DNA of 45,799 bases from a bacterium (GTDB taxonomy: Bacteria; Patescibacteriota; Minisyncoccia; Phycocordibacterales; UBA5272), in NCBI GenBank assembly GCA_023267635.1, contig JAHFMX010000001.1:149165-194963 (forward strand), written 5' to 3'. A program made the translations under genes and the position numbers. The notes under the pieces were generated by a model. The model worked only from the letters and a program-made list of their open reading frames with translations. It did not search any database and had not been told where the DNA came from. The number at the start of each line of letters is the position of its first letter. Position 1 is the first letter of the stretch. Below are positions 2,929-40,550 of this stretch, piece after piece.

Positions 2929-5900
2929 ATGGATCCAATAGTCACACAAAAACTTGATGAGTTGATTGCCAACAAGAAAACGGTAACAGTGATTGCTGAT
3001 GAGTTACAGGTATCTCGACAAACGGTCTATAAGTGGCTTAGTAAGTACAAGAGAGATAATACTGAATTTGCTAAAGCCTTGAGAGAAAGAAGTACTCTTT
3101 CTGCTCATAATAAAATTCCGTCCCAGATAGAAAGTGTTGTTATTTCTATTGCTGAAAAAAACCCAGAAGACAGTGTTTCAGCTTTAACAGCCAAGCTTAA
3201 GAATAACTATAAAATTGTTCTTAACTCCGCAACTGTCTTTAGAATTCTTAAACGTAATAATATCCGTTACCAAGGAGTTTCTATCCCCAAAGAACAATTA
3301 GTAGAGATTTCTCAAGAAATTGTTCCCGTTGTAGAAACTTCTGTGCCCACACCACAAGTAGCTTCATTCACTCCGCCTGTTCAAACGATACCGCTACCCG
3401 TTCTCTTTTCTGAACCTTTTCTAGTACATAAAGGTAAAGATGTGAATACTCGTATGTTTGAGGGTTTGTATAAGTTAACGGCGACTGCACTCGCTGCGGT
3501 TACTTGTGTCTTAACTGTTACGTATGGAGCTACTCGTTTTGAATCAGGTGCTATTGCTTTAAAACAAACTATTCCCTATAACGAACTCAGCTCTCCTGCT
3601 TTTACATCCTACGCAAATATCCTACCAATCAGAGAGGTGGTTGAGTTAATTGGAATAGAAAACCGCACCGCACCAGCTACTCCTACGTTTACTTTTATTG
3701 CAGATTCTCCTCGTTTTAAGAAATCAATTAGTATTTTTTCACCTAGAACTTTTTCTCTTTCAAAACTTGGCACTGCAACAAATTCTTTTGTAAAAAATGG
3801 CCCACGCCTTAGTGTGCTTTCATCCGTTCCTCTCACTAACTATACAAACTATCTATTCGGTGGAGACGTTGCTCGAGCTGAAAATCAAGCTTCGAGCACC
3901 TTTTCTCTTGCTTCGAACTTCTCGTTGCTTGATCGTTTTTCACTCGCTCTTTTTTGCGGAGTTACATCGTTTTCTGGTGAAGTTAAACAGGAAAGATGTA
4001 ATTACAGCAAACTTGCTTCATTAACAGAAACATCAACAGAAGTCGCTCCTATTCCAGGCGATAGTGTTGTGGTTGATGGTGGTGCAGAAGATCAACAGGG
4101 CAGTGCTGAAGATGCAACCCCATCTCTCCCTCCCTCCTCCCCAATCTACCTCACCCGCTACATCACTCAATACATCGGTGTCCCAGGTCCAGCAGGTAAA
4201 GATGGAGCAGATGGTAAAGACGGAGTAAACGGTATCACGTCATCTGCACCAGAAGGCTATGGTTCCTACCTCATTCCTTCGTACTCTTCTCCAGCAACAT
4301 CAATTGGAGTTTCTACCATCTCATACCTTCGTCAAACAACCATTGAACTTCCTGTCATTACAGGAGGTACTGCTACTACGCTTTCTCTCATTACTCCAAC
4401 GGTACAAGGTGGAGTATTCAGTGGACACTCACTCTTTAATGACTCTGCATCATTCACTGGTTCAGTAACCATCAACAACCTTACCGCTACGTCTTCTACT
4501 GTCACTAACCTTACCGCTACTAACGCCACCACCACCAACGCTTACATTGATTTCCTCACCGTAGGGTCTTCTACTGCAGGAAGTCTTACACTAAGTGGCA
4601 CCCTTAACGTAGCAGGAACAACAACACTCGCCACCACTACCGCATCTTCTTTCACCACAACGTACGCAACCACGACAAACCTCTTTACTCAGAATCTTTC
4701 TGTGGGTAATGCTTCAACAACAGGGAATCAATCAATTGATGGACAGTTCAACGTATCAGGAACATCAACCCTTGGAGCAAAGGTCTTCCTTAACGGAAGT
4801 GTGGTAGTTGGTACTTCAAGTGACGAACTGTTCACGGTAAACGCACTTGTTAACTCAAACATTACTCCATCTCAGAACATTACCTATGACCTCGGTTCTC
4901 CATCCTTCTACTGGAGAAACCTCTACGCTAACAACATCAACGTAAACAGTATCTCTGCTGCCTCAACCACCATCTCTGGAACATCTAACAATGACTTCAT
5001 TGTGAACTCAGACAATGGTTCCTCTGATGCTGAAGATGCTTCCTTTGTGTTCTTCCGTGGACTCTCTACACCAAATGCATTGTTACGTTGGAACTCTGCA
5101 ACCAAGCGTATTGAATCCAACATGAGTTTCAAAGTACAAAACGAAACACCAACCACAGGAACAACAACACTCACCGTACAAGCAGGCGCAGGACAGGGAT
5201 CAACGAATCTCTTTGAACTCATTAATTACGCTGGAACCAAACTTTCCGCATTTACCTCACAAGGATGGCTAGGTATTGGAACTACCACACCCTCTACATC
5301 TCTTCACCTTACAACTAACGATGGACTCATCATTCCAGCAGGTACAACAGCACAGCGTCCAAGCACAACTCTCCCAGGTGTTATCAGATACAACACTACT
5401 AACACTGGCTTTGAAGGATTCAATGGTTCTACCTGGGGATCTCTTGGTGGAGTAAGTGATGCAGATCAAAATACCTACATCTCAGCTGAAAACTCAGCTG
5501 GATCAAACAATGATGAACTTAAGTTCTATACCGCAGGCACACTACGAGGCATCTTCTCCTCAACAGGGAACTTTGGGATTGGAACGAGTACGCCAGGGTC
5601 TATGCTTACTGTTGTCGGAACAACATCACTTGCAACGACAACGATTACGGGGACGCTTACGGTGAATGGTAATACCAACATCACTCAAGGAGGAACCCTT
5701 ACCGTTGGAGACAAAGTGATTGCTCCAGGAGAAATTGGTGCAGGAACATCTAGTCCATCAGGAAAAATTGCTATACAAAGTACATTAGCTAACCAGGTTG
5801 CATTTTTGATATACGGTACATCAACTCAGATAGCTCCACTTATTGATGTTTTTGATTACCCAGGATCAAACCAAAATATATTTCGTTTAAGTGCAACAGG

Positions 5901-8769
5901 AACTTTGTCTGCAATTGGTGGTTCATTTGGGAGTCTTGCTATTACTGGACAAACGAATCTTGGTACCGCTTCTTCTACTGGACTTACTGCAACAAATGTA
6001 TATGGTACAAACAGTACGATTACCAACGCAACTTCTAGTTCGTTCTTCTCAACTCTTATAAGCGCTGTAACCGCAGCGTTTACAAATCTTTCAACTACAG
6101 GAACAACAACACTGGCAACTACTGGGGGGAACGTGGGGATTGGAACTACAACACCAACATCTAAGCTGGACCTCTGGGGCAATCTCGCGGTAGGAACTTC
6201 TTCTACTCCCACGCTGTTTGTGAATACTGCATTAGGAAATGTTGGAATTGGAACTTCAATCGGAACATCAACCTTGTTTGTCCAGGGAGCTGGAACGATG
6301 AACCCATTCACTGTTGCATCGTCTTCAGGAACATCACTCTTTTCTGTTCTCGCCAATGGAAATGTAGGAGTGGGGACATCAAGTCCAACACATACGTTAG
6401 ATGTAAACGGAATAGTTAATGCAACTAATTTTTATAAAAATGGAGTTCCATTTATTGCAGGTAGTCCAGCAAATACTATTTCATCATTTAATCAGTCTAC
6501 CTGTCCCGCAGGATGGATTCTTGCAGACGGAACAAGTGGAACTCCTGATTTACGAGGTGTGTATGTGAGAGGTGCAGGAACAAGTGGTTCGTATACCATG
6601 GCAAATGGTAGTCCATACACTTCAACATACGGAACATTCCAGAATGATGCTTTCCAAGGGCATGCCTACCAACCATCTCTATATGCTCAGCATTTGGATA
6701 ATGGAGACGGAGCGGGGTATGCGCTTATAAACGTAGCAAACTTTGCTCTAACGGTGGCCGTTCCTTCGGGTGCAGCTATAAGTGATGGAGTAAACGGTGC
6801 ACCACGTATTTCTACTGAAACTCGTCCAGGTTCATATTCTCTTATCTATTGTATGAAGACTACAGAAGATGCGAACACAACGAGTACTATTTGGGGAAGC
6901 TCTGGAAATAATGTTTTCTTACAAGATACTTCAAAAAATCTTGGAATTGGAACAACGAGCCCAACTTCAGTGTTTACTGTTGCCTCTTCCACCGCAACAA
7001 GTACAGCTAGTATCTTTTCAGTGGCTAGTACAACAACACTCTTTAATGTATTAGCTAATGGAAATGTGGGAATTGGCGCTAGTCCACTTAATTTTAAGCT
7101 TCAAGTAAACGGTTCAGTAAAATTAGGAGGCCTTATAACTATTGGTCGATCTGGTGGTAATTATGATAGTGTTGGTTATAACTTTAGAACAACTGGGACA
7201 TCAGATTCTTATCTGTATGATGTTGAAGATTTTTCTTCTCGGTTAGAGTTTTTTCAAGGAGGATTTTATTTTAAATCGTCAGGTTCAGGTACCGCTGGGA
7301 ACGCAATTAGTTATACAAATACATTTATCGTAGAGCAAACAGGTAACGCAACCCTCGCAGGAACTCTCACTCAAAACTCCGACCAGCGCCTCAAAACAAA
7401 TATTACGTCTCTCCCTTCTTCCTATGGTCTTGATTCTATACTTAAGCTCAATCCAGTCACCTACATATGGAAAGATACTAATCGCGGAACAAGCACTCAG
7501 ATAGGTTTTCTAGCTCAACAAGTGCAGTCATTCTTCCCAGAACTTGTAACACGCTCTTCTGCTACTACAACAGATACACCAGATGGAACACTTGGTCTTA
7601 ATTATATTGATCTTATTGCACCCGCAATTAAAGCAATCCAAGACCTCAATTCTGTCTTTAACGCAACTAATGCCCTTAACGCTTCATCAACCATCTTCTC
7701 CTACTATCAGGGAACAACGACACCAGCAATCACCGTAGGAGCAACTGGAGTACTAGGTATTGGTAACAATGGTATCTCACTAGGCGGTGAATTGTTACGT
7801 GTATCAGGCACTGTGCGTGCGACAGGGTTTGATATCGACAATGCTTCTGATATTGCCGAAACATTTCCAGCAGCAGAAGCGGTGGACGCGGGAACGATTG
7901 TCGCATTTGCAACAAGCACCTATGCATGGTCACCAACGGCAACATCAACTGACACATACGACATGTCTGGTGTTCGCAAAGCACAGAGTGATTATGAAGC
8001 AATTGGTATTATTTCTACACAACCTGGAATACGTTTAGGTGGAACAACAGCAAACGGTGTGCCTGTCGCGTTTACTGGCCGAGTTCCAGTTAAAGTTACT
8101 AAGGAAAACGGAGAGATAAAACGAGGAGACTACATTACTGTATCAAAGACACGTGCTGGGTATGGAATGAAATTAACAGGAGAAGGTAAGGCTGTAGGTG
8201 TTGCTCTCTCAGACGATACAGGGCGAGATACTGTTCTTGTGCTTCTTCAAGTAGGGAATCATAAGTTAGATATGCAAGGACGTAATGCCACTACAACAGC
8301 ATTTCTCACAACAGGAAACCTGGACCTTAACGCAAATGGAGTTGCGATCACCAATATTAAATCTTTAGCCTCTGCAAACGGTACATGGTCAATTGATGAA
8401 AACGGAAAGATTGTAGCGAAGATGTTGTGTTTGGATGAGGTGTGTATCGATAAGAGTGTGCTCAGCACTATCCTCAATTCATTCGGTCAAAGTGGTGCTG
8501 TTGCAGGAACCACCACTTCGGTAGATGTTGCAACAACTACACCAACTGAGACTGGTACCACTACTCCAGATGTGCTTTCAACTGCGTCAACAACTCCATC
8601 AACTACAGCCACAACAACAGAACCAGTAGTAACGCCTACTCCTACAGAACCCGCACCCACACCTGAGCCAGTTCCTACATCTGAACCAACTCCAGAATCA
8701 ACCCCAACCCCTGAACCAACTCCAGAACCAATGTCTACTCCTGTAGAACCTACTCCAATAACACCCTAG
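2929..8769 (+). CDS. Giant (1946 aa) surface/tail-fibre-like protein: N-terminal HTH, TM segment, GNVGIGT repeats, tail-collar-like module, S74-type chaperone, G2-type chaperone, Pro/Thr tail
   Basis: IADELQVSRQTVYKWL HTH; hydrophobic segment near aa 180-200; repeated GNVGIGTxxP; CPAGWILADGTSGTPDLRG; NSDQRLK...IGFLAQQV...LNY; SDIAETF...GRVPVKV; (PE/PT)n tail. Confidence 0.85.
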   Translation: MDPIVTQKLDELIANKKTVTVIADELQVSRQTVYKWLSKYKRDNTEFAKALRERSTLSAHNKIPSQIESVVISIAEKNPEDSVSALTAKLKNNYKIVLNSATVFRILKRNNIRYQGVSIPKEQLVEISQEIVPVVETSVPTPQVASFTPPVQTIPLPVLFSEPFLVHKGKDVNTRMFEGLYKLTATALAAVTCVLTVTYGATRFESGAIALKQTIPYNELSSPAFTSYANILPIREVVELIGIENRTAPATPTFTFIADSPRFKKSISIFSPRTFSLSKLGTATNSFVKNGPRLSVLSSVPLTNYTNYLFGGDVARAENQASSTFSLASNFSLLDRFSLALFCGVTSFSGEVKQERCNYSKLASLTETSTEVAPIPGDSVVVDGGAEDQQGSAEDATPSLPPSSPIYLTRYITQYIGVPGPAGKDGADGKDGVNGITSSAPEGYGSYLIPSYSSPATSIGVSTISYLRQTTIELPVITGGTATTLSLITPTVQGGVFSGHSLFNDSASFTGSVTINNLTATSSTVTNLTATNATTTNAYIDFLTVGSSTAGSLTLSGTLNVAGTTTLATTTASSFTTTYATTTNLFTQNLSVGNASTTGNQSIDGQFNVSGTSTLGAKVFLNGSVVVGTSSDELFTVNALVNSNITPSQNITYDLGSPSFYWRNLYANNINVNSISAASTTISGTSNNDFIVNSDNGSSDAEDASFVFFRGLSTPNALLRWNSATKRIESNMSFKVQNETPTTGTTTLTVQAGAGQGSTNLFELINYAGTKLSAFTSQGWLGIGTTTPSTSLHLTTNDGLIIPAGTTAQRPSTTLPGVIRYNTTNTGFEGFNGSTWGSLGGVSDADQNTYISAENSAGSNNDELKFYTAGTLRGIFSSTGNFGIGTSTPGSMLTVVGTTSLATTTITGTLTVNGNTNITQGGTLTVGDKVIAPGEIGAGTSSPSGKIAIQSTLANQVAFLIYGTSTQIAPLIDVFDYPGSNQNIFRLSATGTLSAIGGSFGSLAITGQTNLGTASSTGLTATNVYGTNSTITNATSSSFFSTLISAVTAAFTNLSTTGTTTLATTGGNVGIGTTTPTSKLDLWGNLAVGTSSTPTLFVNTALGNVGIGTSIGTSTLFVQGAGTMNPFTVASSSGTSLFSVLANGNVGVGTSSPTHTLDVNGIVNATNFYKNGVPFIAGSPANTISSFNQSTCPAGWILADGTSGTPDLRGVYVRGAGTSGSYTMANGSPYTSTYGTFQNDAFQGHAYQPSLYAQHLDNGDGAGYALINVANFALTVAVPSGAAISDGVNGAPRISTETRPGSYSLIYCMKTTEDANTTSTIWGSSGNNVFLQDTSKNLGIGTTSPTSVFTVASSTATSTASIFSVASTTTLFNVLANGNVGIGASPLNFKLQVNGSVKLGGLITIGRSGGNYDSVGYNFRTTGTSDSYLYDVEDFSSRLEFFQGGFYFKSSGSGTAGNAISYTNTFIVEQTGNATLAGTLTQNSDQRLKTNITSLPSSYGLDSILKLNPVTYIWKDTNRGTSTQIGFLAQQVQSFFPELVTRSSATTTDTPDGTLGLNYIDLIAPAIKAIQDLNSVFNATNALNASSTIFSYYQGTTTPAITVGATGVLGIGNNGISLGGELLRVSGTVRATGFDIDNASDIAETFPAAEAVDAGTIVAFATSTYAWSPTATSTDTYDMSGVRKAQSDYEAIGIISTQPGIRLGGTTANGVPVAFTGRVPVKVTKENGEIKRGDYITVSKTRAGYGMKLTGEGKAVGVALSDDTGRDTVLVLLQVGNHKLDMQGRNATTTAFLTTGNLDLNANGVAITNIKSLASANGTWSIDENGKIVAKMLCLDEVCIDKSVLSTILNSFGQSGAVAGTTTSVDVATTTPTETGTTTPDVLSTASTTPSTTATTTEPVVTPTPTEPAPTPEPVPTSEPTPESTPTPEPTPEPMSTPVEPTPITP

Positions 8770-22845: not shown

Positions 22846-22898
22846 TCAAAAATATATTCAATCTTCGTTGTTGCAGTTCAAAACAAAAGAAGAACATA

Positions 22899-31085: not shown

Positions 31086-32540
31086 ATGGCATCAATCGAT
31101 GAGCTTCGCGCAGAGCGTCTCAAAAAATTACAAGCGTTAGAAGAATTAGGAAAGTCAGGGTTTCCAGCGGTCTCGCGAAGAACACATGAACTAAGTGATA
31201 TTGTTCGTAATTTCCAAGAATTAGAAAAGTCAGGTAGTCAGGTTATCGTAACAGGAAGAGTGATGGTCTCGCGTGGGCAGGGAGCTCTTATCTTTATTGA
31301 CCTGTATGATGGAACAGCAAAACTTCAAGCTGTCATTAAACTTCCTGAATCTGGAGAAGAAGCTCATACATTCTTTACAACGTATGTTGATACGGGAGAT
31401 TTCATTGAAGTAACAGGAACGTTGTTTACCACAAAGTCAGGGCAGGAGAGTGTGCTCGTTACAAACATTTCTATGCTTTCAAAAGCACTCCTACCACTAC
31501 CTGATAAGTACCACGGTATTCAGGATGAGGAACTTCGTATGCGTGAACGATATTTAGATATTCTTACAAATCCTGAGCTTCGCGAACTACTTGAAAAGAA
31601 GGCAAAGTTCTGGGAAGTTGTGCGTGCATTTTTGCGTGAGAAAAAATTCCTTGAAGTTGAAACACCAACTATTGAAGTAACAACAGGAGGAGCTGAAGCT
31701 CGTCCATTTGCAACATATCACAACGACTTTGATCTTGATGTATTCATGCGTATTTCTGTTGGAGAATTGTGGCAGAAAAGATTAATGGCAGCAGGGCTTC
31801 CGAAAACATTTGAAATAGGTCGCGTCTACAGAAACGAAGGATCTTCCCCAGAGCATGTCCAGGAATTCACTAACTGTGAGTTTTACATGGCGTATGCTGA
31901 CTATGAGGATGGAATGAAAATGGTTGAAGAATTGTACAAGAAGATCGCAGAAGAGGTGTTCGGAACGACCACATTCACTACTCGAGGGCATACATTTGAT
32001 TTGGCAGGTGAGTGGAAACGAATTGATTACCGAGAAGAAGTTCTGGGTCAAACAGGAGTTGATATTACTACTGCGACCCTTGAGCAACTCGTGGCAAAGG
32101 CTAATGAACTTAAGATTAAATATGAGGGAGTCAATGAAGAGCGTCTTATTGATACGCTATGGAAGTATTGCCGAAAGAATATTTCTGGTCCAGCATTTCT
32201 TGTTAATCACCCATTACTTGTTGCTCCGCTTGCAAAGAAGAACAGTGATGGAATGACAGCACAAATTTTCCAACCAATTCTCGCTGGTTCTGAAATTGGA
32301 AAAGGGTACTCTGAATTGAATGATCCGATTGATCAGCGTGCTCGATTTGAAAAACAACAAGAACTCTTATCAGGTGGGGATGAAGAAGCGATGATGGCTG
32401 ACGATTCTTTCATTGAAATGCTTGAGCATGGAATGCCACCAACATGTGGATTTGGATTCGGAGAGCGTTTATTTGCGTTCTTGTCCGATAAACCTATACG
32501 TGAAATTCACACATTCCCTCTCATAAAGCCAAAGAATTAG
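31086..32540 (+). CDS. lysS: Lysyl-tRNA synthetase (class II)
   Basis: OB-fold N-terminus; GGAEARPF, YRNEG, EFTNCEFY and GMPPTCGFGFG motifs. Confidence 0.97.
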   Translation: MASIDELRAERLKKLQALEELGKSGFPAVSRRTHELSDIVRNFQELEKSGSQVIVTGRVMVSRGQGALIFIDLYDGTAKLQAVIKLPESGEEAHTFFTTYVDTGDFIEVTGTLFTTKSGQESVLVTNISMLSKALLPLPDKYHGIQDEELRMRERYLDILTNPELRELLEKKAKFWEVVRAFLREKKFLEVETPTIEVTTGGAEARPFATYHNDFDLDVFMRISVGELWQKRLMAAGLPKTFEIGRVYRNEGSSPEHVQEFTNCEFYMAYADYEDGMKMVEELYKKIAEEVFGTTTFTTRGHTFDLAGEWKRIDYREEVLGQTGVDITTATLEQLVAKANELKIKYEGVNEERLIDTLWKYCRKNISGPAFLVNHPLLVAPLAKKNSDGMTAQIFQPILAGSEIGKGYSELNDPIDQRARFEKQQELLSGGDEEAMMADDSFIEMLEHGMPPTCGFGFGERLFAFLSDKPIREIHTFPLIKPKN

Positions 32541-32640
32541 TCCATCTACTTTGTCGCTACAGAATTTTTCTCAGTCAGCGTAGGTCTACTACGCTTTCTT
32601 CAGAAAATTCTTATGCTTCGCGTATCTTAACCAATTCTTT
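32531..32640 (+). repeat. Nested fold-back element at the lysS 3' end (family member A)
   Basis: Outer arm includes the stop codon; middle arms 32561-69/32603-11; inner hairpin AGCGTAG/CTACGCT; 26/31 identity to 39706-36. Confidence 0.75.
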
Positions 32641-32667
32641 TACTTTCTGAAATATATAAATCAGAGA

Positions 32668-32710
32668 GATAAACGAAAAAGCACTACATTGTAGTGCTTT
32701 TTCGTTTATC
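32668..32710 (+). terminator. Long-stem terminator
   Basis: 20-bp perfect arms (32668-87/32691-710). Confidence 0.8.
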
Positions 32711-32714
32711 CACA
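32706..32714 (+). promoter_or_regulatory. DnaA box upstream of the mraZ/dcw promoter
   Basis: Exact TTATCCACA consensus. Confidence 0.55.
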
Positions 32715-32741
32715 GGCATTTTCTAGGACATTAAAAGCTAA

Positions 32742-32777
32742 GTGGAGTATAATGGAGGCTAGTGGAGGATTGTGGGA
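32742..32777 (+). promoter_or_regulatory. MraZ operator repeats overlapping the -10 box
   Basis: GTGGAG, ATGGAG, GTGGAG, GTGGGA at exact 10-bp period (32742, 32752, 32762, 32772); TATAAT at 32748-53. Confidence 0.85.
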
Positions 32778-32795
32778 GATTCTTCACAAACTAAT

Positions 32796-33230
32796 ATGCT
32801 GATAGGCCAATACACACACGAACTCGATCCGAAAAAACGACTGACCTTGCCAGCTAAATGGAGGACTTCGTTGGGGAAAAAAGTTGTTGTAACAAATGGT
32901 CTTGATGGATCGCTCTTTATATTCGCAGAAAAAGAATGGACGAGGATTGCAGAACAGCTTGCGTCAAATGGATTCGGTAATGCCGATTCACGAAGTTTTA
33001 ATCGTGTGATGCTTGCACATGCGTTTGAAACAGACATCGATGCACAGGGGCGCATTCTTATCCCTGATACGTTGAAGGATTCAGCAGGACTTAGTTCTAA
33101 AGTAGTTCTTGCTGGTATGTATTCACGTATTGAAATGTGGGATGAAGGAAGATGGAAGGAATATTCAAAGAAAGCTCTTGGCGAAGCAGATGCTTTGGCA
33201 GGAAAGCTAAGTGATCTAGGTTTACTATAG
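32796..33230 (+). CDS. mraZ: Division/cell-wall cluster repressor MraZ
   Basis: DPKKRL and DAQGRILIP motifs; start at MLIGQY. Confidence 0.96.
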   Translation: MLIGQYTHELDPKKRLTLPAKWRTSLGKKVVVTNGLDGSLFIFAEKEWTRIAEQLASNGFGNADSRSFNRVMLAHAFETDIDAQGRILIPDTLKDSAGLSSKVVLAGMYSRIEMWDEGRWKEYSKKALGEADALAGKLSDLGLL

Positions 33231-33248
33231 GTGGTGACATTTACGACC

Positions 33249-34142
33249 ATGTCACATATACCAGTACTTTTACATGAATCTCTAGAAGGTTTAGCTATAC
33301 AAGAAGGTGGCGTGTACGTTGATTGCACAACCAATCGCGGAGGCCACAGTTTAGAAATAGCTAAAGCTTTGGGAAAAAACGGAACACTTGTCTGTATTGA
33401 TCTTGATCAAGTGGCGCTTGAAGAAGCAAAAAATAAACTAGATGCTTTGGAAGATAAACCTACCATTCATTATGTTCATTCTAACTTCAGACATTTACAA
33501 GCGGTACTTGCAGATCTACAGATAGAAAAGGTTAATGGGGTGCTTGCGGATTTGGGGCTTTCATCTCAAGAGCTAGACAGCTCAAAGAGAGGATTCTCTT
33601 TTAGGTTCGATGAGCCACTCCTTATGACCTTTCACGCATCTCCAAGTGAAGATATGACAACAGCGTATGACATTGTTAACACGTGGAATGAAGAATCAAT
33701 TGCAGACGTTTTGTACGGTTTCGCTGACGAAACCTACTCACGACGCATTGCGAAAAGAATCATTGATGCGCGACAGAGGGGAAAGATAGAAACAACACTT
33801 CAGTTGGTTGATATCATCGCTTCCGCTGTTCCAGCTGACTATCGCCACAAGAAGACGCACTTTGCTACAAAAACATTTCAAGCGCTTCGTATGGCAGTGA
33901 ACGATGAGTTAGGAAGTATCCACGACCTCATCTCATCACTCCCTCATGTATTACAAGTAGGGGGACGTGCGGCAATCATAACCTTTCATTCAACTGAAGA
34001 CAGAATTGTAAAAAAAGAATTAAGAAGTTTACCTGAATCATTAACAATTATTAACAAGAAAGCAATCGTTCCGACAGATGAGGAATTAGAACATAATCCT
34101 CGTGCACGAAGTGCTCAGTTACGTATCGCCGAAAAAATATAA
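33249..34142 (+). CDS. rsmH: 16S rRNA m4C1402 methyltransferase RsmH (MraW)
   Basis: HIPVLL, DLGLSSQEL, FQALRMAVNDEL and NPRARSAQLR motifs. Confidence 0.96.
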   Translation: MSHIPVLLHESLEGLAIQEGGVYVDCTTNRGGHSLEIAKALGKNGTLVCIDLDQVALEEAKNKLDALEDKPTIHYVHSNFRHLQAVLADLQIEKVNGVLADLGLSSQELDSSKRGFSFRFDEPLLMTFHASPSEDMTTAYDIVNTWNEESIADVLYGFADETYSRRIAKRIIDARQRGKIETTLQLVDIIASAVPADYRHKKTHFATKTFQALRMAVNDELGSIHDLISSLPHVLQVGGRAAIITFHSTEDRIVKKELRSLPESLTIINKKAIVPTDEELEHNPRARSAQLRIAEKI

Positions 34143-34157
34143 GCCAACCCCACACTC

Positions 34158-34475
34158 ATGTCATCACGCTACCAATCAATCACACTTTTCGAACGCACTG
34201 TTCACACCATGTTCGGGTCTCTTGTGGTGCTCGCGCTCATCTATTGTGTGGTTTTGCTCTCATTAATTTTTTCAGTGATTGAACGTAAACAAAATGCTCT
34301 TGCAAGTCGTGATTTAACCTCTACCTTGAGCGCCCTTGAAGCAAAGTACGCAAATAGTGTTGCTTCTATCAATGATGCGACGCTGCTCGCTAATAATTAT
34401 AAGAGAATTGATGGTGCAACATTTGCAGTGCGTAAAGATGCTATAGCTAGTTATACTGTGCTCTATGCACGCTAA
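34158..34475 (+). CDS. ftsL: FtsL-like cell division protein
   Basis: Single TM plus coiled coil; located between rsmH and ftsI. Confidence 0.6.
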   Translation: MSSRYQSITLFERTVHTMFGSLVVLALIYCVVLLSLIFSVIERKQNALASRDLTSTLSALEAKYANSVASINDATLLANNYKRIDGATFAVRKDAIASYTVLYAR

Positions 34476-36216
34476 TCCTGAGGAACAACTAAACGAAGAT
34501 CAGAGGCTGCGATCAGAGGACAGAGCTCATCTTGTGATGTTGTTATGGTTTCTCGTGGCACTTTTTATTGCTTCACGAGCTTTTTATATTCAAGTTGTTA
34601 AGCATTCATATTATGTGGATGTGGCAGATAGACAATACATAACAAATGGACCTGTAAACTTCGACAGGGGGACAGTATTTTTTTCTCATTATAGAGAGGA
34701 ATTAGTTCCAGCTGCTCAACTTTCAACAACGTATCGCGTAGCAATTGATCCAACTGCTATTAGCAATGCGACATCTACGTACGAAAAACTTGTGACTCAT
34801 CTTCCTCTTTTAGATAGTGTTTCTTTTATGGCGCGCGCCACTAAAGTAGGTGACCCGTATGAAGAAATAGCAAAAGACATATCTGCTGAAACGGTTGCAC
34901 AAATAAAGTTAGAGAAACTTACTGGGGTAAGTTTTGTAAAAGATAATAAGCGCGCCTATCCACAAATGGATATAGGGTCAAAGATTTTAGGATTCGTAGG
35001 TAACGACGGTTCTCGTGTTAAAGGGCAATATGGCATCGAGCGATATTATAATGATGTGCTTTCCAGATCAGGAAGTAGTCAGTCAGTGAATTTCTTTGCG
35101 GAACTTTTTGCGGATATCGAGAAAACAAGTATTTCCAATACCGACGCGAAGGAGGGAGATATTGTTCTTACTATTGATGCGGAAGCAGAGCGCGCACTCC
35201 ATAATGCTCTCGTAGAAACAAAAAAGGAATGGAACTCCGACATTATCGGGGGGATCATTATGGACCCTCAAACGGGAAATATTCTTGCTATGGATTCACT
35301 TCCTTCGTTTGATCCAAATGCGTATGCGAATGTAGAGGACGCAAGTTTCTTTTTAAATCAAAATGTTTCTGGAGTGTATGAAATGGGGAGTATTATCAAA
35401 CCGCTTACTATGGCAGCGGCACTGGACAGTGGGGCGGTAACAGAAGAAACAACGTATAACGACACTGGATTTCGCGATCTTAACGGCTATAAAGTTAAAA
35501 ACTTTGACGGACAAGCCAGGGGGGCGGGAACAGCTATGCAAACTATATTGGATAAATCTCTCAACATCGGTATTGTTTTCTTGGTTGAACAGCTCGGCAC
35601 TAAACGATTCCAGCAGTACTTTAAAAACTTTGGACTTGGAGAAGAGACAGGCATTGATCTTCCAGGAGAGGCGAGTGGGCTTACAAAAAACTTAGATAGT
35701 AACGTGCTTGTTGATAGTGCTACTGCTGGATTCGGACAAGGTATTGCCGTAACTCCTATTCAAACAGTTCGCGCGCTTGCGGCTTTGGGGAACGGTGGGA
35801 AGTTAGTCAATCCTCATGTTGTTGATACTATTATTTACAATAACGGCACAACAAAAAAGATTGTTCAAGATCCACCAACACAAGTGATAACAGAAAAAAC
35901 AAGTGAAGAGATTTCGCGCATGTTGGTGCATGTGGTGGACACTGCCCTTAAAAATGGAACGTATAAAATGGATAGGTATTCAATCGCAGCAAAAACTGGG
36001 ACTGCTCAAATAGCAAAGGGAGGAGGAGGGTACTACGAAGACAGGTATCTTCACTCATTCTTTGGATATTTCCCAGCGTATGAACCAAAGTATATTATTT
36101 TCTTGTATCACACGAATCCAAAAGGTGCAGAATACGCCTCAGCAACGCTTACTGACCCATTCTTTAAGTTGGTTAAGTTCCTTATCTCATATTACGAAGT
36201 TCCACCAGACCGTTAG
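34465..36216 (+). CDS. ftsI: Penicillin-binding protein 3 (FtsI-like)
   Basis: MGSIIK (SxxK), SLN (SxN) and KTGT motifs; dcw position. Confidence 0.88.
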   Translation: MHANPEEQLNEDQRLRSEDRAHLVMLLWFLVALFIASRAFYIQVVKHSYYVDVADRQYITNGPVNFDRGTVFFSHYREELVPAAQLSTTYRVAIDPTAISNATSTYEKLVTHLPLLDSVSFMARATKVGDPYEEIAKDISAETVAQIKLEKLTGVSFVKDNKRAYPQMDIGSKILGFVGNDGSRVKGQYGIERYYNDVLSRSGSSQSVNFFAELFADIEKTSISNTDAKEGDIVLTIDAEAERALHNALVETKKEWNSDIIGGIIMDPQTGNILAMDSLPSFDPNAYANVEDASFFLNQNVSGVYEMGSIIKPLTMAAALDSGAVTEETTYNDTGFRDLNGYKVKNFDGQARGAGTAMQTILDKSLNIGIVFLVEQLGTKRFQQYFKNFGLGEETGIDLPGEASGLTKNLDSNVLVDSATAGFGQGIAVTPIQTVRALAALGNGGKLVNPHVVDTIIYNNGTTKKIVQDPPTQVITEKTSEEISRMLVHVVDTALKNGTYKMDRYSIAAKTGTAQIAKGGGGYYEDRYLHSFFGYFPAYEPKYIIFLYHTNPKGAEYASATLTDPFFKLVKFLISYYEVPPDR

Positions 36217-36337
36217 ACAGAAATTATCTCATCTACTGCGTTACAAGAAATTTTCTCTCCACGCAACGTACTATTCGTACGTTTTGGTCGAGAAAATTTC
36301 TTGTGCCTTGTATCTAAAATAATTTCTGTCTAACGGT
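36209..36337 (+). repeat. Nested fold-back element at the ftsI 3' end (family member B)
   Basis: 19-bp perfect outer arms (36209-27/36319-37) including the stop codon; 15-bp perfect middle arms (36243-57/36290-304); 7-bp inner hairpin. Confidence 0.85.
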
Positions 36338-36362
36338 TCCCGAAATGTGTTAGTATATACCC

Positions 36363-37172
36363 ATGATTAAAAAAACTTCTGCAAAAAAGAAGATACCAGC
36401 CTCTGTGACGAAAGATACTTCGTGGGGTGGAGTTGCTGAGTGGTACGACAAACATCTCGAAAAAGGAACAGACACATACCATGATAAAGTAGTTCATCCG
36501 AACCTTCTGCGTATGCTCGGGGATGTTAAAGGAAAGCAAATACTTGACCTTGGATGCGGTCAGGGAATTTTCTCGCGCTTGCTTGCTGACGCTTCCGCAA
36601 ACGTAGTTGGTGTTGACCTTGGGAAAGAACTCATTGCAATAGCCGAGAAGAAAAATGCCGAGTATGCATTTAAGATTCATTATTTCCACGGCGCATCTGA
36701 TGATCTTTATATGGTTAAAGATGAAACAAAAGATATTGTTGTATGTGTCTTGGCTCTTCAGAACATTGAAAAGTTACAGGGTACTGTTACAGAGGTGGTT
36801 CGCACACTTAAGAAAGGTGGAAAGTTTTTTGTAGTACTCAACCACCCAAGTTTCAGAAATCCACGAAACACCCATTGGGGGTATGACGAACATGAAAAGG
36901 TTCAGTATCGCCGAGTAGACGAATATCTCAGTGAATCAAAGATTAAAATTGATATGACCCCAGGGGCTATCAAAGATAAGAAATTTACCGTTTCTTTCCA
37001 TCGCCCACTTCAGGTATACGTGAAGGCATTTGGAAAACACGGACTCGCAGTTACAAGACTTGAGGAATGGGAATCTCACCGTGCAAGCCAAAATGGACCA
37101 CGAAAAGACGCTGAAGATAAAGCTCGAAAAGAGATACCACTTTTCTTGTGTTTGGAGATGATTAAGTTGTAA
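36363..37172 (+). CDS. Class I SAM-dependent methyltransferase
   Basis: ILDLGCGQG motif I; VGVDLG. Confidence 0.9.
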   Translation: MIKKTSAKKKIPASVTKDTSWGGVAEWYDKHLEKGTDTYHDKVVHPNLLRMLGDVKGKQILDLGCGQGIFSRLLADASANVVGVDLGKELIAIAEKKNAEYAFKIHYFHGASDDLYMVKDETKDIVVCVLALQNIEKLQGTVTEVVRTLKKGGKFFVVLNHPSFRNPRNTHWGYDEHEKVQYRRVDEYLSESKIKIDMTPGAIKDKKFTVSFHRPLQVYVKAFGKHGLAVTRLEEWESHRASQNGPRKDAEDKARKEIPLFLCLEMIKL

Positions 37173-37208
37173 AAAGCTTTAAAATCAAGTGTGATACACT
37201 AGAGTAAT

Positions 37209-37874
37209 ATGAAAAAATTATCACGCTTTCTTGCAACAACTGAAGGAAAATTCCTCACTTTTATCGGAGCTTTAGTAGTACTTTCTTTTGCCTACTATTT
37301 CTATGCAATGAGTACACGAGCAAATCTACCAACACCAGAAATCACAATTAACGAACAAGATCACGTTCGTGGAACCGTCGGTGGAAAAGTTACGCTTGTT
37401 GAGTTCGGTGACTTTCAGTGTCCAGCCTGTGCAGCTTACGAACCAATTGTTCGTCAGGTAATTGCTGATAACGCAGGTACATTACAGTTCGTGTTTAAAC
37501 ACTTCCCACTTACGCAGATTCACCAGAATGCTTTACTCTCCGCAAAGGCATCTGAAGCCGCAGCACTTCAGGGTAAGTTCTGGGAAATGCATGATATTCT
37601 CTACGACAAACAAACAGAGTGGTCAGGAAGTTTAAACGCTCGAGATATGTTCGTTGGGTATGCCACAACGCTAGGACTTGATGCGGCAAAGTTTTCAACT
37701 GATCTGAATAATGCTTCTATTGAAGATAAAATTGTTGCTGAGTACAAAGAAGGGGTATCTCTTGGTGTACAGGGGACTCCAACATTCTTCCTTAATGGAA
37801 AGAAGCTTGATAACCCAGGAAGTGTGGATGCGTTTAATAAGTTAATTAAAGAAGCAGCTGCTTCATCAAACTAA
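37209..37874 (+). CDS. DsbA-family thioredoxin-fold protein with TM anchor
   Basis: EFGDFQCPAC, FKHFPL and GVQGTPTFF (cis-Pro) motifs. Confidence 0.93.
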   Translation: MKKLSRFLATTEGKFLTFIGALVVLSFAYYFYAMSTRANLPTPEITINEQDHVRGTVGGKVTLVEFGDFQCPACAAYEPIVRQVIADNAGTLQFVFKHFPLTQIHQNALLSAKASEAAALQGKFWEMHDILYDKQTEWSGSLNARDMFVGYATTLGLDAAKFSTDLNNASIEDKIVAEYKEGVSLGVQGTPTFFLNGKKLDNPGSVDAFNKLIKEAAASSN

Positions 37875-37876
37875 CT

Positions 37877-38104
37877 ATGATTAAAGAATTTCTATTAAAG
37901 CAGGCAGTTAAGCGCGGAACAAAAGATCTTCCAAAGGAACAGCAAGAGATGTTACAAGTTGCTGTAGAGAAAAACCCTGAGCTCTTCACAAAGATCGCAA
38001 AAGAAATTGAAGTCTTGAAGAAGCAAGGTAAGCCAGAGATGTATGCAGCCCTCGATGTGATGAAGAAGTATCAAAAGGAGATGCAGGAATTGTTTCAGAA
38101 ATAA
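37877..38104 (+). CDS. Small helical hypothetical protein
   Basis: Starts 2 nt after the dsbA stop; protein-like composition. Confidence 0.75.
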   Translation: MIKEFLLKQAVKRGTKDLPKEQQEMLQVAVEKNPELFTKIAKEIEVLKKQGKPEMYAALDVMKKYQKEMQELFQK

Positions 38105-38108
38105 ATAA

Positions 38109-38191
38109 AAAAAGCCGCACAGTGCGCTCCCAAATTTTTTAGACTGTATCCAGTCTCTTAAAATTGGCAGTACCTTTAGGTGCGGCTTTTT
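38109..38191. terminator. Bidirectional terminator with an extended internal hairpin
   Basis: AAAAAGCCGCAC/GTGCGGCTTTTT arms enclosing AGACTG-TATC-CAGTCT. Confidence 0.7.
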
Positions 38192-38209
38192 GTTTCGGCA
38201 GGTGTTCGA

Positions 38210-38476
38210 TCAGTCGTAGATTTTCAGGATGCCACCGATGTCCGATGAGCATTCTGCGGGCTTGATCAGGTTTTCCTCAGGACTTCTCCGTCCAGAGATA
38301 ACCTTCGCAATGAGATAGGTAAAAAACAGACAAACCCACACCGCGAAGCAAATCCAGAGAATCTGTTCGACGAGAGAGTTCTTCAAGAATGCGATATTGA
38401 CGGTCGTAACCACCAATATGCAGCAAATAATCACCGAAAGCGCGTTTGCGCTTTGTCTCCAGAATTGGTTACTCAT
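38210..38476 (-). CDS. Orphan two-TM membrane protein
   Basis: AGAGGG 6 nt before ATG 38476; two hydrophobic segments; TGA stop. Confidence 0.7.
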   Translation of the reverse strand: MSNQFWRQSANALSVIICCILVVTTVNIAFLKNSLVEQILWICFAVWVCLFFTYLIAKVISGRRSPEENLIKPAECSSDIGGILKIYD

Positions 38477-38570
38477 GATTTTCCCTCTAAAGAATTTCGC
38501 CACGAGGACGATACATCAGCAGATTACCACAATGGAAAGATAACTCAAAGCGTGATAAGATTACACGACT

Positions 38571-39668
38571 ATGTCACTCTCAATCGGTATTGTAGGTCTT
38601 CCAAATGTTGGTAAATCAACACTCTTTAATGCGCTCACGAAAAAATCTGTACCAGCGGATAACTATCCTTTTTGTACTATCGATCCGTCAGTTGGTATTG
38701 TTCCTGTTCCTGATGAACGACTTGAGGCGCTTTCAAAAATTTCTGGTTCAAAGAAAATAATTCCAGCGATTGTGGAGTTCGTAGATATTGCAGGTCTTGT
38801 TAAGGGGGCCTCTGAAGGGCTTGGACTCGGTAATCAATTCCTCACACATATTCGTGAGACTGACGCTATTGCAGAAGTGGTTCGTATTTATGAGAACGCA
38901 GATCTTATTCACGTGGAAGGAACGGTGGACCCAATGCGTGATATTGAAATCATCAACATGGAACTTATCTTGGCCGACATGCAGACGGTTGATAAGCGAG
39001 CTCAAACAATTGGACGAGATGTAAAACGTGGAGATAAGGACGCAGTTAAACTGCAAGGTGTTATCGAACGCCTACAAAAGTTGTTCGCTGAAGAAAAACT
39101 TGCGAATAGATTGGAACTTGATGAAGAAGAACACAAACTTGTGCGTGATCTACACCTCATTACTATGAAGCCGTTTCTCTACGTGTTGAATAAGCAATCA
39201 GGTGGAAAAAATTTGGATGAAATGAAAGACCCACGATTTGATGCACTTGTTGCATATTTTAAAGAAAACAAATTCCACTATGTTGTCGTGGACGCAAAGA
39301 TTGAAGATGAGCTCAAAGACTTCGAAGGAACAGAGCGTGATGAGATGCGTTCTGAACTTGGTGCGCACGATAGCGGAGTAGATCATCTTATTAAAGCAGG
39401 CTACGACCTTCTTGGACTTGAGACATATCTTACGACAGGGGAAATGGAAACACGTGCATGGACTATCAAGAAAGGTTCTACTGCGCCTCGTGCAGCAGCA
39501 GCTATTCACTCTGACTTTGAAACAAAGTTTATTCGCGCTGAAGTTGTTGCCTGTGATGATTTAGTACAAGCTGGAAGCTTTGCAGAAGCAAAAGCGAAAG
39601 GAGTACTACGAACAGAAGGGAAGGAATATGTCGTCCAAGATGGCGACGTCATAGAATTCAAAATCTAA
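38571..39668 (+). CDS. ychF: Redox-regulated ATPase YchF
   Basis: [38 protein letters not shown] and TGS domain. Confidence 0.97.
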
Positions 39669-39783
39669 AAAACATTCCATCTTCGTTGTTGTGACTTTAT
39701 TTTTGTCAGTCACCGTAGATTAACTACGTTTTCTTCCAAAAACTTGTCACGCCTAGAATATGAAACATTTTTTAGATTTTGAA
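39657..39783 (+). repeat. Nested fold-back element at the ychF 3' end (family member C)
   Basis: 16-bp perfect outer arms (39657-72/39768-83) including the stop codon; GTGAC/GTCAC middle arms; CGTAG/CTACG inner hairpin. Confidence 0.8.
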
Positions 39784-39799
39784 AGCTTAAGATATAAAT

Positions 39800-39832
39800 A
39801 AATAAGCCAGCCAATCCGAAGATTGACTGGCT
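39800..39832 (-). terminator. Intrinsic terminator with C(UUCG)G loop
   Basis: AGCCAGTCAATC-TTCG-GATTGGCTGGCT-TATTT; the G-U wobble works only on the minus strand. Confidence 0.85.
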
Positions 39833-40013
39833 ATGGAACTACCTTACCCTGTTTCATCCCTACGGAATCATCAGGAGAAGAATCCACTTGTTTGTAATCT
39901 GACTGAAATCAAGATTACGGGACGCGTGATATTGGGAAGTCTTTTTCTGGATGGCGCCAGTTAAGACCTTGTCACACCCAACATCTGCTTCTCTACATGA
40001 ACAGGTATTCCAT
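39800..40013 (-). ncRNA. Stand-alone structured RNA with a type III hammerhead-ribozyme-like core
   Basis: Consensus promoter; 5' ATGGAA pairs with TTCCAT just before a C(UUCG)G terminator; CTGATGA (39874-68), stem II, GAAAC (39855-51), GTA triplet (39996-94), stem I GAGAAG/CTTCTC; only tiny ORFs (6-7 codons) seen. Confidence 0.7.
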
Positions 40014-40018
40014 AATCT

Positions 40019-40047
40019 ATTATAACAGATTATTAAGTTAATGTCAA
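40019..40047 (-). promoter_or_regulatory. Perfect-consensus sigma70 promoter driving the hammerhead-like RNA
   Basis: TTGACA (40047-42), 17 nt, TATAAT (40024-19), with extended TG. Confidence 0.9.
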
Positions 40048-40100
40048 GTAAATAAGATTATTAGATACTTACATCTTAAATTAACTGATATACTTTTTCT

Positions 40101-40550
40101 ATGTATATTCTTTATGCGCTCCTCGGTGCAGTTATGGCTTCTATCGGAACTATTTTTGCAAAAGTTGGATTGAAAGGCGTCGATGCAAATCTTTTAACAG
40201 CGCTTCGGGGAATTGTTATGGCGGTGATCGTAACGCTTGCCGCACTTTCGTTTGGGAAATTTACTCAAGCAGGACTTTCATCGCTCACGGCTAAACATTG
40301 GCTTTTTATTATTCTCTCTGGGCTCGCAGGAGCATTATCATGGATATTCTTTTATCATGCACTATCTGCTGGACCGACCGTAACGGTAACAGTGCTTGAT
40401 AAGTTGTCCCTCGTTTTCACTGCAATTCTCACAATGATTGTATTGGCAGAAGGGATAACACTGCAAGCGGGGGTGGGGCTTGTGTTGGTTGTTGTGGGAA
40501 CAATTCTCGTTGCAATTCCTTGGAATAGCTTGATTTCATTCGTTAAATAG
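40101..40550 (+). CDS. EamA/DMT-family small transporter
   Basis: Five TM segments; FAKVGLKGVD...LSGLAGALSWIFFYHAL...LDKLS pattern. Confidence 0.88.
   Translation: MYILYALLGAVMASIGTIFAKVGLKGVDANLLTALRGIVMAVIVTLAALSFGKFTQAGLSSLTAKHWLFIILSGLAGALSWIFFYHALSAGPTVTVTVLDKLSLVFTAILTMIVLAEGITLQAGVGLVLVVVGTILVAIPWNSLISFVK

Follow-up and report, generated by a model that had tools for sequence, protein, structure and literature searches.

The window analysed here is a stretch of 45,799 nucleotides that corresponds to positions 149165-194963 of contig C35 in a 1.22-Mb genome bin (G000) of a bacterium of the Patescibacteriota, which is made up of 56 contigs and is 94% complete. Immediately behind the genes lysS, ftsI and ychF, this window carries three copies of a long palindromic repeat, and behind frr a decayed remnant. 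These copies belong to a repeat family that is real and widespread, and full-text literature searches did not return any published description of it. The unit is mobile, or at least rapidly turning over. Its copies dock on the stop codons of genes in the orientation of the gene, fold better on one strand than on the other, are present in some genomes and absent from the same site in others, carry an inverted copy of the host flank without a direct duplication, and are spread across phyla, including a conjugative island. The explanation that seems, on balance, the probable one is a non-autonomous mobile palindrome, defined by its structure, whose closing stem would be extended by fold-back (template-switch) DNA synthesis. 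The features of the window that belong to the family are the following:

22846 to 22895, plus strand: decayed remnant 3' of frr, in which the 5' arm and linker AAAAATATATTCAATCTTCGTTGTTGC are kept; it starts 1 nt past the frr stop TAA.
32531 to 32640, plus strand: lysS copy; outer stem AAAGAATTAGT (32531-32541) against ACCAATTCTTT (32630-32640), with 10 of 11 positions paired.
36209 to 36337, plus strand: ftsI copy, 129 nt, with a perfect outer stem of 19 bp and a perfect middle stem of 15 bp.
36209-36227 with 36319-36337: outer stem (P1) of the ftsI copy.
36209 to 36216, plus strand: host-native piece of the ftsI outer arm, ACCGTTAG, that is, the last codons and the stop; the sister genome G017 has the identical gene end at its empty site (locus L031).
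36228-36242: 5' linker of the ftsI copy.
36243-36257 with 36290-36304: middle stem of the ftsI copy.
36258-36265 and 36283-36289: inner loops of the ftsI copy.
36266-36282: apical hairpin of the ftsI copy.
36305-36318: 3' linker of the ftsI copy.
36330 to 36337, plus strand: inverted copy of the ftsI gene end, CTAACGGT, which is lacking in empty sites.
39657 to 39783, plus strand: ychF copy, with a perfect 16-bp outer stem (TTCAAAATCTAAAAAA with TTTTTTAGATTTTGAA).

The original prediction, made from the letters of the window, had described three nested fold-back elements and a remnant, and all of its coordinates, arm lengths and match counts were reproduced. Positions 32571-32601 of the lysS copy and 39706-39736 of the ychF copy are identical at 26 of 31 nucleotides, and the 13-mer ATCTTCGTTGTTG, which is found at 22861-22873 and starts 16 nt past the frr stop, matches 39679-39691 at 13 of 13. 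The 13-mer belongs to a longer match (18 of 21) with the 5' arm and linker, and it is from these two matches that the remnant is called, because the half-element hidden Markov model (HMM) missed it. Around 27 nt at this locus are extra with respect to G017; the sister genome does not have them. The stop codons of the three host genes were located within the 5' outer arms, where they had been placed by the prediction: TAG at 32538-32540 for lysS, TAG at 36214-36216 for ftsI and TAA at 39666-39668 for ychF. In the lysS copy the perfect outer pairing is limited to 8 bp. A check against NCBIfam placed lysS, YchF and frr above their equivalog cut-offs, and the gene called ftsI encodes a class-B penicillin-binding transpeptidase.

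When an HMM built from the three copies was iterated with nhmmer over the whole assembly, 30 copies were found in G000, and a covariance model found 31. The genome scan that had been proposed with the prediction thus returned many more copies, both in this genome and in its relatives, and the similarity of the linkers lies far above chance. The conserved unit, of around 104-113 nt, consists of a short proximal closing stem, two asymmetric linkers, a middle stem and an apical hairpin. The middle stem is variable (11-15 bp); the apical hairpin, the linkers and the two inner loops are conserved. Read on the gene strand, the linker consensus sequences are CATCTnCTTyGTyGC and GCcTCGnATCT, and the apical hairpin is either GTAC-TATTC-GTAC or CGTAG-n5-CTACG. 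In several genomes, copies form tandem or back-to-back pairs around 10-125 nt apart (C35 122144-122355; L244 1799-2047, L253 969-1235 and L239 1928-2285).

The stems vary between copies and yet keep pairing. When 96 copies from many genomes were aligned to the model, standard pairs occupied 91.1% of the cells, against 63.6% in shuffles (none of 500 reached the observed value) and 32-43% with slid partners, a figure of 91.1% that leans towards the structure since the alignment was fitted to the model. Changes on both sides were seen in 28 of the 32 pairs of this alignment, and an independent alignment with MAFFT and RNAalifold gave compensatory changes in 26 of 32. Complementarity extends beyond the 104-nt core, where the two flanks of one copy pair with each other better than flanks combined from different copies (8.27 vs 5.06; 0 of 5000 permutations reach this value). 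As an example, the 15-bp middle stems behind ftsI in G000 and in two other genomes, G035 and G011, differ at no fewer than 6 positions, and each of them pairs at 15 of 15. The family-wide alignment therefore agrees with the claim of a dispersed family in which the unpaired linkers are conserved and the covarying arms are specific to each locus. The copies of G000 are identical to one another at a median of 62% and a maximum of 87%, so that there has been no very recent burst from one master copy, and a recent burst in this genome was rejected as an explanation.

Comparison with described families was negative as well. In Rfam release 15 only a tRNA reaches the gathering score in the window, and a search with permissive filters over 32400-39900 gave, on the elements, only chance-level miRNA matches far below threshold. 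Neither a described REP family nor an Rfam family matches the repeat.

The formation of the outer stem can be followed by comparison with the whole sister genome G017, which is around 87% identical to G000 over aligned windows, holds one or two copies and has element-free counterparts for around 20 of the 30 G000 loci. At ftsI, G017 has the identical gene end CCACCAGACCGTTAG, after which come a spacer of 33 nt and the next ATG. In the window, on the other hand, the TAG is followed by the 113-nt palindromic unit (ACAGAAATTAT...ATAATTTCTGT), then by CTAACGG and then by the remaining spacer. CTAACGG is the reverse complement of the host sequence CCGTTAG (7 nt) and it is not in the empty ftsI site. 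The host-native arm ACCGTTAG is also found in an empty allele from run X6, one of the groundwater metagenome runs. At ychF, the outer stem contains 12 nt of coding sequence and stop (TTCAAAATCTAA), which are mirrored, and the mirror fits the window's own allele; ychF of G017 has the same C-terminus (DGDVIEFKI*), synonymous differences and no element. At lysS, the 11-nt arm AAAGAATTAGT overlaps the gene end and the stop, the sister gene end is one codon different, and the site in G017 is just CCAAAATAG and a 25-nt spacer; a near-identical filled lysS allele is present in metagenome run X4. The mirrored length is 13 nt at C53_36799 and C9_54701, 11 nt at C23_48369 and 7 nt at C15_48282. Overall, the inverted copy spans 7-16 nt, is present only where the element is present and always agrees with its own host allele. 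Since the 5' arm is host sequence and the 3' arm is absent from the empty sites, the flank has truly been copied in inverted form, just as had been proposed for the outer arm. No direct target duplication was found when filled and empty sites were compared (ftsI, ychF, lysS, C53_36799 and others).

At three further sites the flank may have been copied from right to left, although each of them is ambiguous. At C50_22745 the 3' arm holds TTCTTGGGAA, a sequence shared with G017, and its complement forms the 5' arm. The protein at C23_55463 differs in its last two residues (SL vs NI), and the new codons pair with the A tract of the terminator. The element at C50_34296 has the old gene end TCAAGAAGATCTAG on its right, and its gene terminates in FKKA* in place of FKKI*; this old end may be a diverged direct duplication. 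At times the element appears to rewrite the last codons of its host gene.

The ftsI stop codon is the site that has been followed through most genomes. Of the 30 relatives examined, 29 share the C-terminus ISYYEVPPDR*, and two relatives carry one conservative change each. A copy of the window subfamily lies directly after the ftsI stop in G035 and G011, and its far arm tracks the stop codon: TAG goes with CTAACGG, and TAA with TTAACGG, which is the state of G011. In G029 and G014 a different subfamily occupies the same position, where TAGATAA is mirrored (TTATCTA in G029). The copy of G004 has no apex, and in G025 only the two outer arms are left, joined at a single CATCT; decay proceeds by deletion between the two CATCT repeats. 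At ftsI there is no element in G017 and G005, which are the closest relatives. Related to this, a contig of run X6 that is 97% identical over 618 nt of ftsI reads TAG, 33-nt spacer and next gene, that is, an empty site, and a contig of run X4 (97.7% over 3 kb) has a different copy (ATTAAAATTATTCCAGCTTCTTTGTTGCGG...) after the ftsI stop. The ftsI site therefore exists in at least three states at less than 3% flank divergence. Behind ychF, a contig of run X4 joins 39668 to 40101. The presence/absence polymorphism at orthologous loci that had been suggested as a check is thus seen in G017, X4 and X6. Upstream of ychF, region 38121-38570 is polymorphic independently of the repeat: in runs X4 and X6 the related strains skip 60 nt (38121-38182, with TCGC instead) and 318 nt (38251-38570).

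The distance between a copy and the stop codon of its co-oriented gene is 0-16 nt. For counting, a copy was taken as docked when an open reading frame (ORF) of at least 60 codons ended between -25 and +12 nt from the sense 5' edge of the element, and the mirrored arrangement served for comparison. In G000, 22 copies were docked and 4 mirrored (n=30); the figures were 26 and 4 in other genomes of the genus (n=34), 44 and 2 in other genomes of the candidate phyla radiation (CPR; n=64), and 8 and 2 outside it (n=13). The bias towards positions 3' of stop codons, a test proposed together with the prediction, is accordingly found as dominant co-oriented docking in all four genome sets. The stops at the docked copies of G000 are 13 TAA, 8 TAG and 1 TGA, which broadly follows the usage of the genome with TAG somewhat commoner; none of the copies of this genome abuts the 3' end of a tRNA. 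Several target sites hold AAAAT-like strings that resemble the 5' arm, which hints at a possible microhomology.

The orientation of the copies follows the gene and not the replichore. On contig C35 the GC skew stays positive, yet the copies at 74621, 122144 and 122271 are reversed and sit behind minus-strand genes; those at 71620 (plus) and 74621 (minus) are 3 kb apart, each behind its own convergent gene. A replication-strand cause of the orientation was ruled out by this skew. The stems are A+T-rich, and no terminator-type G+C-rich stem was found directly before a U tract; downstream of many copies there is a distinct canonical terminator, such as the one at 32679-32710.

The two strands of the element are not equivalent in their folding. 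The minimum free energy is lower on the antisense strand, that is, the complement of the mRNA, for all 30 copies of G000 (mean -49.1 vs -36.7 kcal/mol) and for 122 of 124 copies elsewhere (33/34 in the genus, 74/74 in further CPR genomes and 15/16 in non-CPR genomes). The ftsI copy reaches 104 bits with the covariance model on the minus strand, which means that the model fits the antisense strand. In RNAalifold the antisense alignment gives -25.4 kcal/mol, and the sense alignment -3.55 with only 13 pairs. Mismatches were counted by aligning the left half of each element to the reverse complement of the right half, so that both strands were treated alike. Isolated helix mismatches read on the gene strand as A.C and G.T were 25:3, 47:9 and 12:3 (A.C being G.U or G.T on the opposite strand), counts that are not all independent events because part of the asymmetry lies at family-conserved positions of the proximal stem; these positions still vary (U-A, U-G, G-U, G-C, C-G). 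Mutational bias as the cause of the wobble asymmetry was rejected by inference from GC skew: the positive skew of the gene strand implies C-to-T changes there, which would give G.T on the sense strand, the opposite of what is observed. On the antisense strand the linkers read as purine-rich internal loops (GA/GA, GAG/GAA), in which tandem G.A pairs could form. Three metatranscriptomes of the same study contained essentially no reads from this organism. The strand asymmetry suggests that persistence of the element depends on the folding of its antisense strand in a single-stranded DNA (ssDNA) form, and the gene-linked orientation may come in part from selection against having the very stable strand in the mRNA at the stop.

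As far as distribution is concerned, 35 of the 36 other genomes in the genus carry the family according to the covariance model, at 1-57 copies per genome; among 24 genomes that belong to other families of the order, 6 carry it. An exact-pattern scan of 185,579 species genomes, for which around 4 chance matches are expected, returned 63 loci. These contain 96 covariance-model matches, two of them reverse-strand duplicates, and hence around 94 full-length copies. The CPR hosts are Paceibacterota, Nomurabacteria, Kaiserbacteria, Saccharibacteria and Gracilibacteria; beyond the CPR, the hosts include Bdellovibrio, Acidobacteriota (with copies of 65% G+C), Rikenellaceae of the Bacteroidota, Methylophilaceae and several Desulfobacterota. 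At an Acidobacteriota locus, a sequence judged by eye to resemble the reverse complement of a tRNA lies beside an element pair. Concerning phages, a loose pattern matched more than 118 viral loci and none of the 80 that were fetched fits the covariance model; a specific pattern matched one viral locus, which is among those 80, and its carriage is unconfirmed.

Outside the CPR, Bdellovibrio sp. HCB290, a complete genome (NZ_CP178620.1) from an apparently cultured isolate, has 19 matches. Around 16 of these lie within 57 kb, nearly all on one strand, and approximately 11 of the 16 sit on the stop of a co-oriented ORF. The region encodes a Replic_Relax protein, a type IV coupling protein, a VirB4-like ATPase and a tyrosine integrase, and for this reason it looks like an integrative conjugative element; a TrbI-like match is weak and under the curated cut-off. 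Also encoded in this island (L287-L290, 1.695-1.775 Mb) are a non-specific endonuclease (PF01223) and two paralogous Replic_Relax-like genes. The island further holds a protein of 1291 aa that looks by eye like an RHS/YD-repeat protein and is followed by small ORFs, as well as several near-duplicate pairs of small ORFs.

The search for a mobilising enzyme gave negative results. The statement of the original prediction that no cognate transposase lies in the window can be widened, since the Y1/RAYT domain PF01797 has no match anywhere in the 94%-complete bin; the same search was positive in 6 of 14 control genomes. Two genes for a reverse transcriptase (PF00078, in frames of around 370 aa) are present in G000 at C35 49508-50131 and C9 40821-41438, and such genes are patchy throughout the genus. 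Genomes that carry 57, 52, 33 and 27 copies lack the domain, and a genome with one copy has it; reverse transcriptase was rejected as a partner enzyme because its presence is uncorrelated with copy number, which also speaks against a retron (msr/msd) or another element dependent on this enzyme. The Replic_Relax domain, chosen from the Bdellovibrio island, has no match in the genus, nor in the control genomes of the same search. A cargo-carrying copy, sought as a 5' half and a 3' half separated by 151-4000 nt, was found neither in G000 nor in the fetched loci, a search in which the half-element models were weak. The search for a master copy returned only apical insertions of 48-66 nt. In G000, a copy outside the window (C23 23572-23721) has an apical insertion of 46 nt, and the copies at L009 and L010 of other genomes have 48 nt at the same place; the apical insertion may be a nested small element. 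From the insertion process that had been proposed, described as REPIN- or MITE-like (after miniature inverted-repeat transposable elements), what stands is therefore the analogy: neither a direct duplication nor a RAYT gene was found, nor a master copy with cargo in the sequences searched.

With regard to the sequences around the repeat, the contigs that bear elements all match G017 at around 87%. A further set (C28, C40, C43, C45, C46, C21, C22, C24, C25 and C29, around 0.4 Mb) has no 400-nt match in G017 and no element. The bin may mix two organisms, because of these unmatched 0.4 Mb and of its size of 1.22 Mb compared with 0.5-1.0 Mb in the genus. On contig C15, the segments at around 65.6-72.3 kb and 76.6-83.3 kb have the same ORF lengths (399, 386, 235, 476, 230 and 364 aa), which suggests a tandem duplication of around 11 kb that is not in G017. 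Within the window, an ORF of 1946 aa (2929-8769, plus strand) lies in a stretch of lower G+C content and negative GC skew.

In the mechanism that we favour, the unit would arrive 0-10 nt behind the stop of a gene, in the orientation of that gene and without direct target duplication, and its closing stem would be lengthened during or after the arrival. For this, a nascent strand would fold back on the palindrome and copy the adjoining flank in inverted form (snap-back synthesis or template switch), and the outer arm would thereby become an inverted copy of the last codons and stop of the host. Copies made from the gene end into noncoding sequence would survive because such copying is harmless, and this would also account for the variable stems being almost always perfectly Watson-Crick paired. 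The fold preserved on the complement of the mRNA points to an ssDNA form as the unit that may be propagated or selected, and copies that place the very stable strand in the mRNA were probably lost by selection. According to published work, template switching creates, homogenises and expands the arms of inverted repeats and hairpins (PMC8794818, PMC13100816, PMC5941160, PMC7202029).

Several observations weigh against this mechanism. No new insertion was directly observed and no intermediate was seen. The insertion lies 0-1 nt from the stop at around 8 of 11 sites read by eye, though 10-33 nt of spacer were free, and fold-back synthesis alone leaves this proximity unexplained. The length gained at filled sites ranges from 107 to 158 nt, so that the unit and the copied flank are not cleanly separable at every locus. 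Some of the empty sites may be decayed remnants, as at C50_22745, where the G017 site holds ATAAATTCACTTC, which is near the consensus of the 5' arm. The spacer to the right of the ftsI copy of the window differs by more than 3% from the empty allele, so that filled alleles may have passed between strains by homologous recombination, a credible alternative to insertion happening repeatedly. The Bdellovibrio copies share, as their outer stem, a 13-bp repeat (GGAGTGATGAAAA / TTTTGATCACTCC) that contains TGATGA and is not locus-specific, and 2-4 of these copies in blocks of oppositely oriented genes keep the orientation of the island. Finally, an unrecognised mobilising protein could be encoded among the 132 ORFs of G000 that are lacking in G017 and have no annotation.

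A further-reaching reading, which we regard as possible but rather unlikely, dispenses with any enzyme of its own: the rod-like palindrome would be spread by host replication via template switching, would be recognised by its fold and not by its sequence, would have its closing stem rebuilt at each site from the last codons of the preceding gene and would be carried between phyla by conjugative elements (from ultrasmall CPR bacteria to Bdellovibrio and Acidobacteriota). If this were true, the docking on stops would come from a coupling of ssDNA exposure to the end of translation or transcription. A function in the host would explain the same copies in another manner. The repeat could be an element of the mRNA 3' untranslated region (3'-UTR) that encloses the stop codon, protects against 3' exonucleases or modulates termination or ribosome release, in the manner of the REP elements near stop codons of Escherichia coli, and spreads by its usefulness. 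Its place is always after the stop codon and ahead of a separate intrinsic terminator, and for this reason it is co-transcribed; its sense orientation is fixed and the sense strand still folds at -37 to -52 kcal/mol. Nevertheless, the better fold and the wobble pairs are on the opposite strand, relatives and strains around 97% identical do without the element behind the same essential genes, and copy numbers go from 0 to 57 within one genus. These points weaken the suggestion of the original prediction that a 3'-UTR fold is under selection to bury the stop codon, and we consider the UTR function unlikely. The benefit could instead come from the strand complementary to the mRNA, either as an antisense RNA that stops or processes incoming transcripts or as a folded ssDNA signal such as a priming site or a single-strand promoter. 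The antisense fold with its G.U pairs and purine-rich loops is conserved across phyla, and the around 16 copies with the same orientation in the Bdellovibrio island lie in DNA expected to be transferred single-stranded. Set against this, no promoter is conserved outside the palindrome, sister genomes do without the element and copies decay, and orientation in the CPR follows the gene instead of the direction of replication or transfer, which leaves this second function about as doubtful as the first.

Two known single-strand systems have been weighed in addition. A REP/REPIN-like or IS200/IS605-derived unit mobilised in trans by an HUH enzyme of the Y1 type (RAYT/TnpA), or by another ssDNA enzyme that recognises the folded strand and cuts near the two conserved (C)ATCT motifs, would fit the strand-specific hairpin and the lack of target duplication, both typical of single-strand transposition; the remnant of G025, with two arms at a single CATCT, is what an excision between two ATCT sites would leave. 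Replication slippage across the hairpin, though, gives the same CATCT deletion. PF01797 is not in G000 even though control genomes have it, the unit is 3-5 times the length of a REP and has no unpaired GTAG or CGTC head, and the locus-specific outer arms are left unexplained, so that this origin looks quite improbable. The least credible proposal, which we hold to be very improbable indeed, is that of an attC-like site in which the upstream genes act as cassettes for an integron-type tyrosine recombinase working on the folded bottom strand. The element does resemble such a site in its length of around 120 nt, its position just 3' of ORFs, its fold on the non-coding strand and a structure more conserved than its sequence, and the Bdellovibrio cluster is array-like, with a tyrosine integrase at the island end. 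But the copies of G000 sit behind core genes (lysS, ftsI, ychF, frr) on 8 contigs, the RYYYAAC and GTTRRRY end boxes are missing and the outer ends are precisely the variable part, and what the empty sites lack is the element only, the gene being still there.

The family has also been compared with described repeat families. The ERIC/IRU and YPAL-type repeats of enterobacteria and the Correia/NEMIS elements of Neisseria are imperfect palindromes of 100-170 nt with tens to hundreds of copies. Such families have conserved terminal inverted repeats and a direct duplication (TA in the case of Correia), and each is restricted to a narrow taxon. The present family shares with these MITEs a small palindrome that is co-transcribed, forms one long hairpin and is present or absent according to the strain. 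It differs from them in having conserved internal loops, a locus-specific outer stem in the CPR and no direct duplication, and in that it docks on stops in one orientation and crosses phyla. As for terminal repeats of the MITE type, only the proximal 10-11 bp of the closing stem are conserved in the CPR; the Bdellovibrio copies examined share a terminal repeat of 13 bp.

REP sequences, extragenic palindromes of 20-40 nt with a GTAG or CGTC head and a RAYT gene, are thought to move as folded single strands, and those of Escherichia coli that lie within around 15 nt of a stop have been reported to affect translation. Like REP/BIME and REPIN elements, the family consists of palindromes at the 3' ends of genes; unlike REPs, the unit measures 104-129 nt, GTAC or GTAG occurs only paired in the apical hairpin, and the conserved unpaired parts are linkers of 10-15 nt. 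The attC sites, for instance the repeats of around 123 nt of Vibrio cholerae, have conserved R and L boxes at their ends and a variable centre, and are arranged in arrays beside intI. The family is similar to them in length, in its position right after the ORF or over the stop, in the conservation of structure above sequence and in a fold opposite to the coding strand. It has, in contrast, a conserved centre and loops, variable ends and housekeeping genes as neighbours. With respect to the attC boxes, the ftsI copy happens to read GTTAGAC...GTCTAAC, with the order reversed, and neither box occurs in the other copies; the integrase of the Bdellovibrio cluster is a phage-type (tyrosine) enzyme within a conjugative island.

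For Salmonella, snap-back synthesis has been put forward as the initiating event of tandem inversion duplications. To our knowledge, template-switch mutagenesis has been described as a sporadic event at arbitrary inverted repeats, and not as a regular feature of a dispersed family. Unlike these sporadic events, the family studied here would regularly rebuild its closing stem from each host gene end. For quasipalindromes, template switches have been described that make the arms in one step from the adjoining sequence, homogenise them and let them grow outwards (PMC8794818, PMC13100816, PMC7202029).

If the model of a mobile palindrome extended by fold-back synthesis is true, a mutational process that acts at single loci (fold-back or template switch) would regularly shape a whole repeat family, and slow compensatory evolution would not be needed to obtain perfect locus-specific stems. 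The family touches essential genes (lysS, ftsI, ychF, frr) at their 3' ends in genomes that are otherwise among the most streamlined known, which bears on the evolution of gene ends, on the survival of mobile DNA in minimal genomes and on annotation, where the arms cause false ORF extensions and break contigs. The same structure and loop sequences across phyla and on a conjugative island raise the question of what recognises the family, and this question is experimentally approachable because Bdellovibrio sp. HCB290 is apparently cultured and is fully sequenced.

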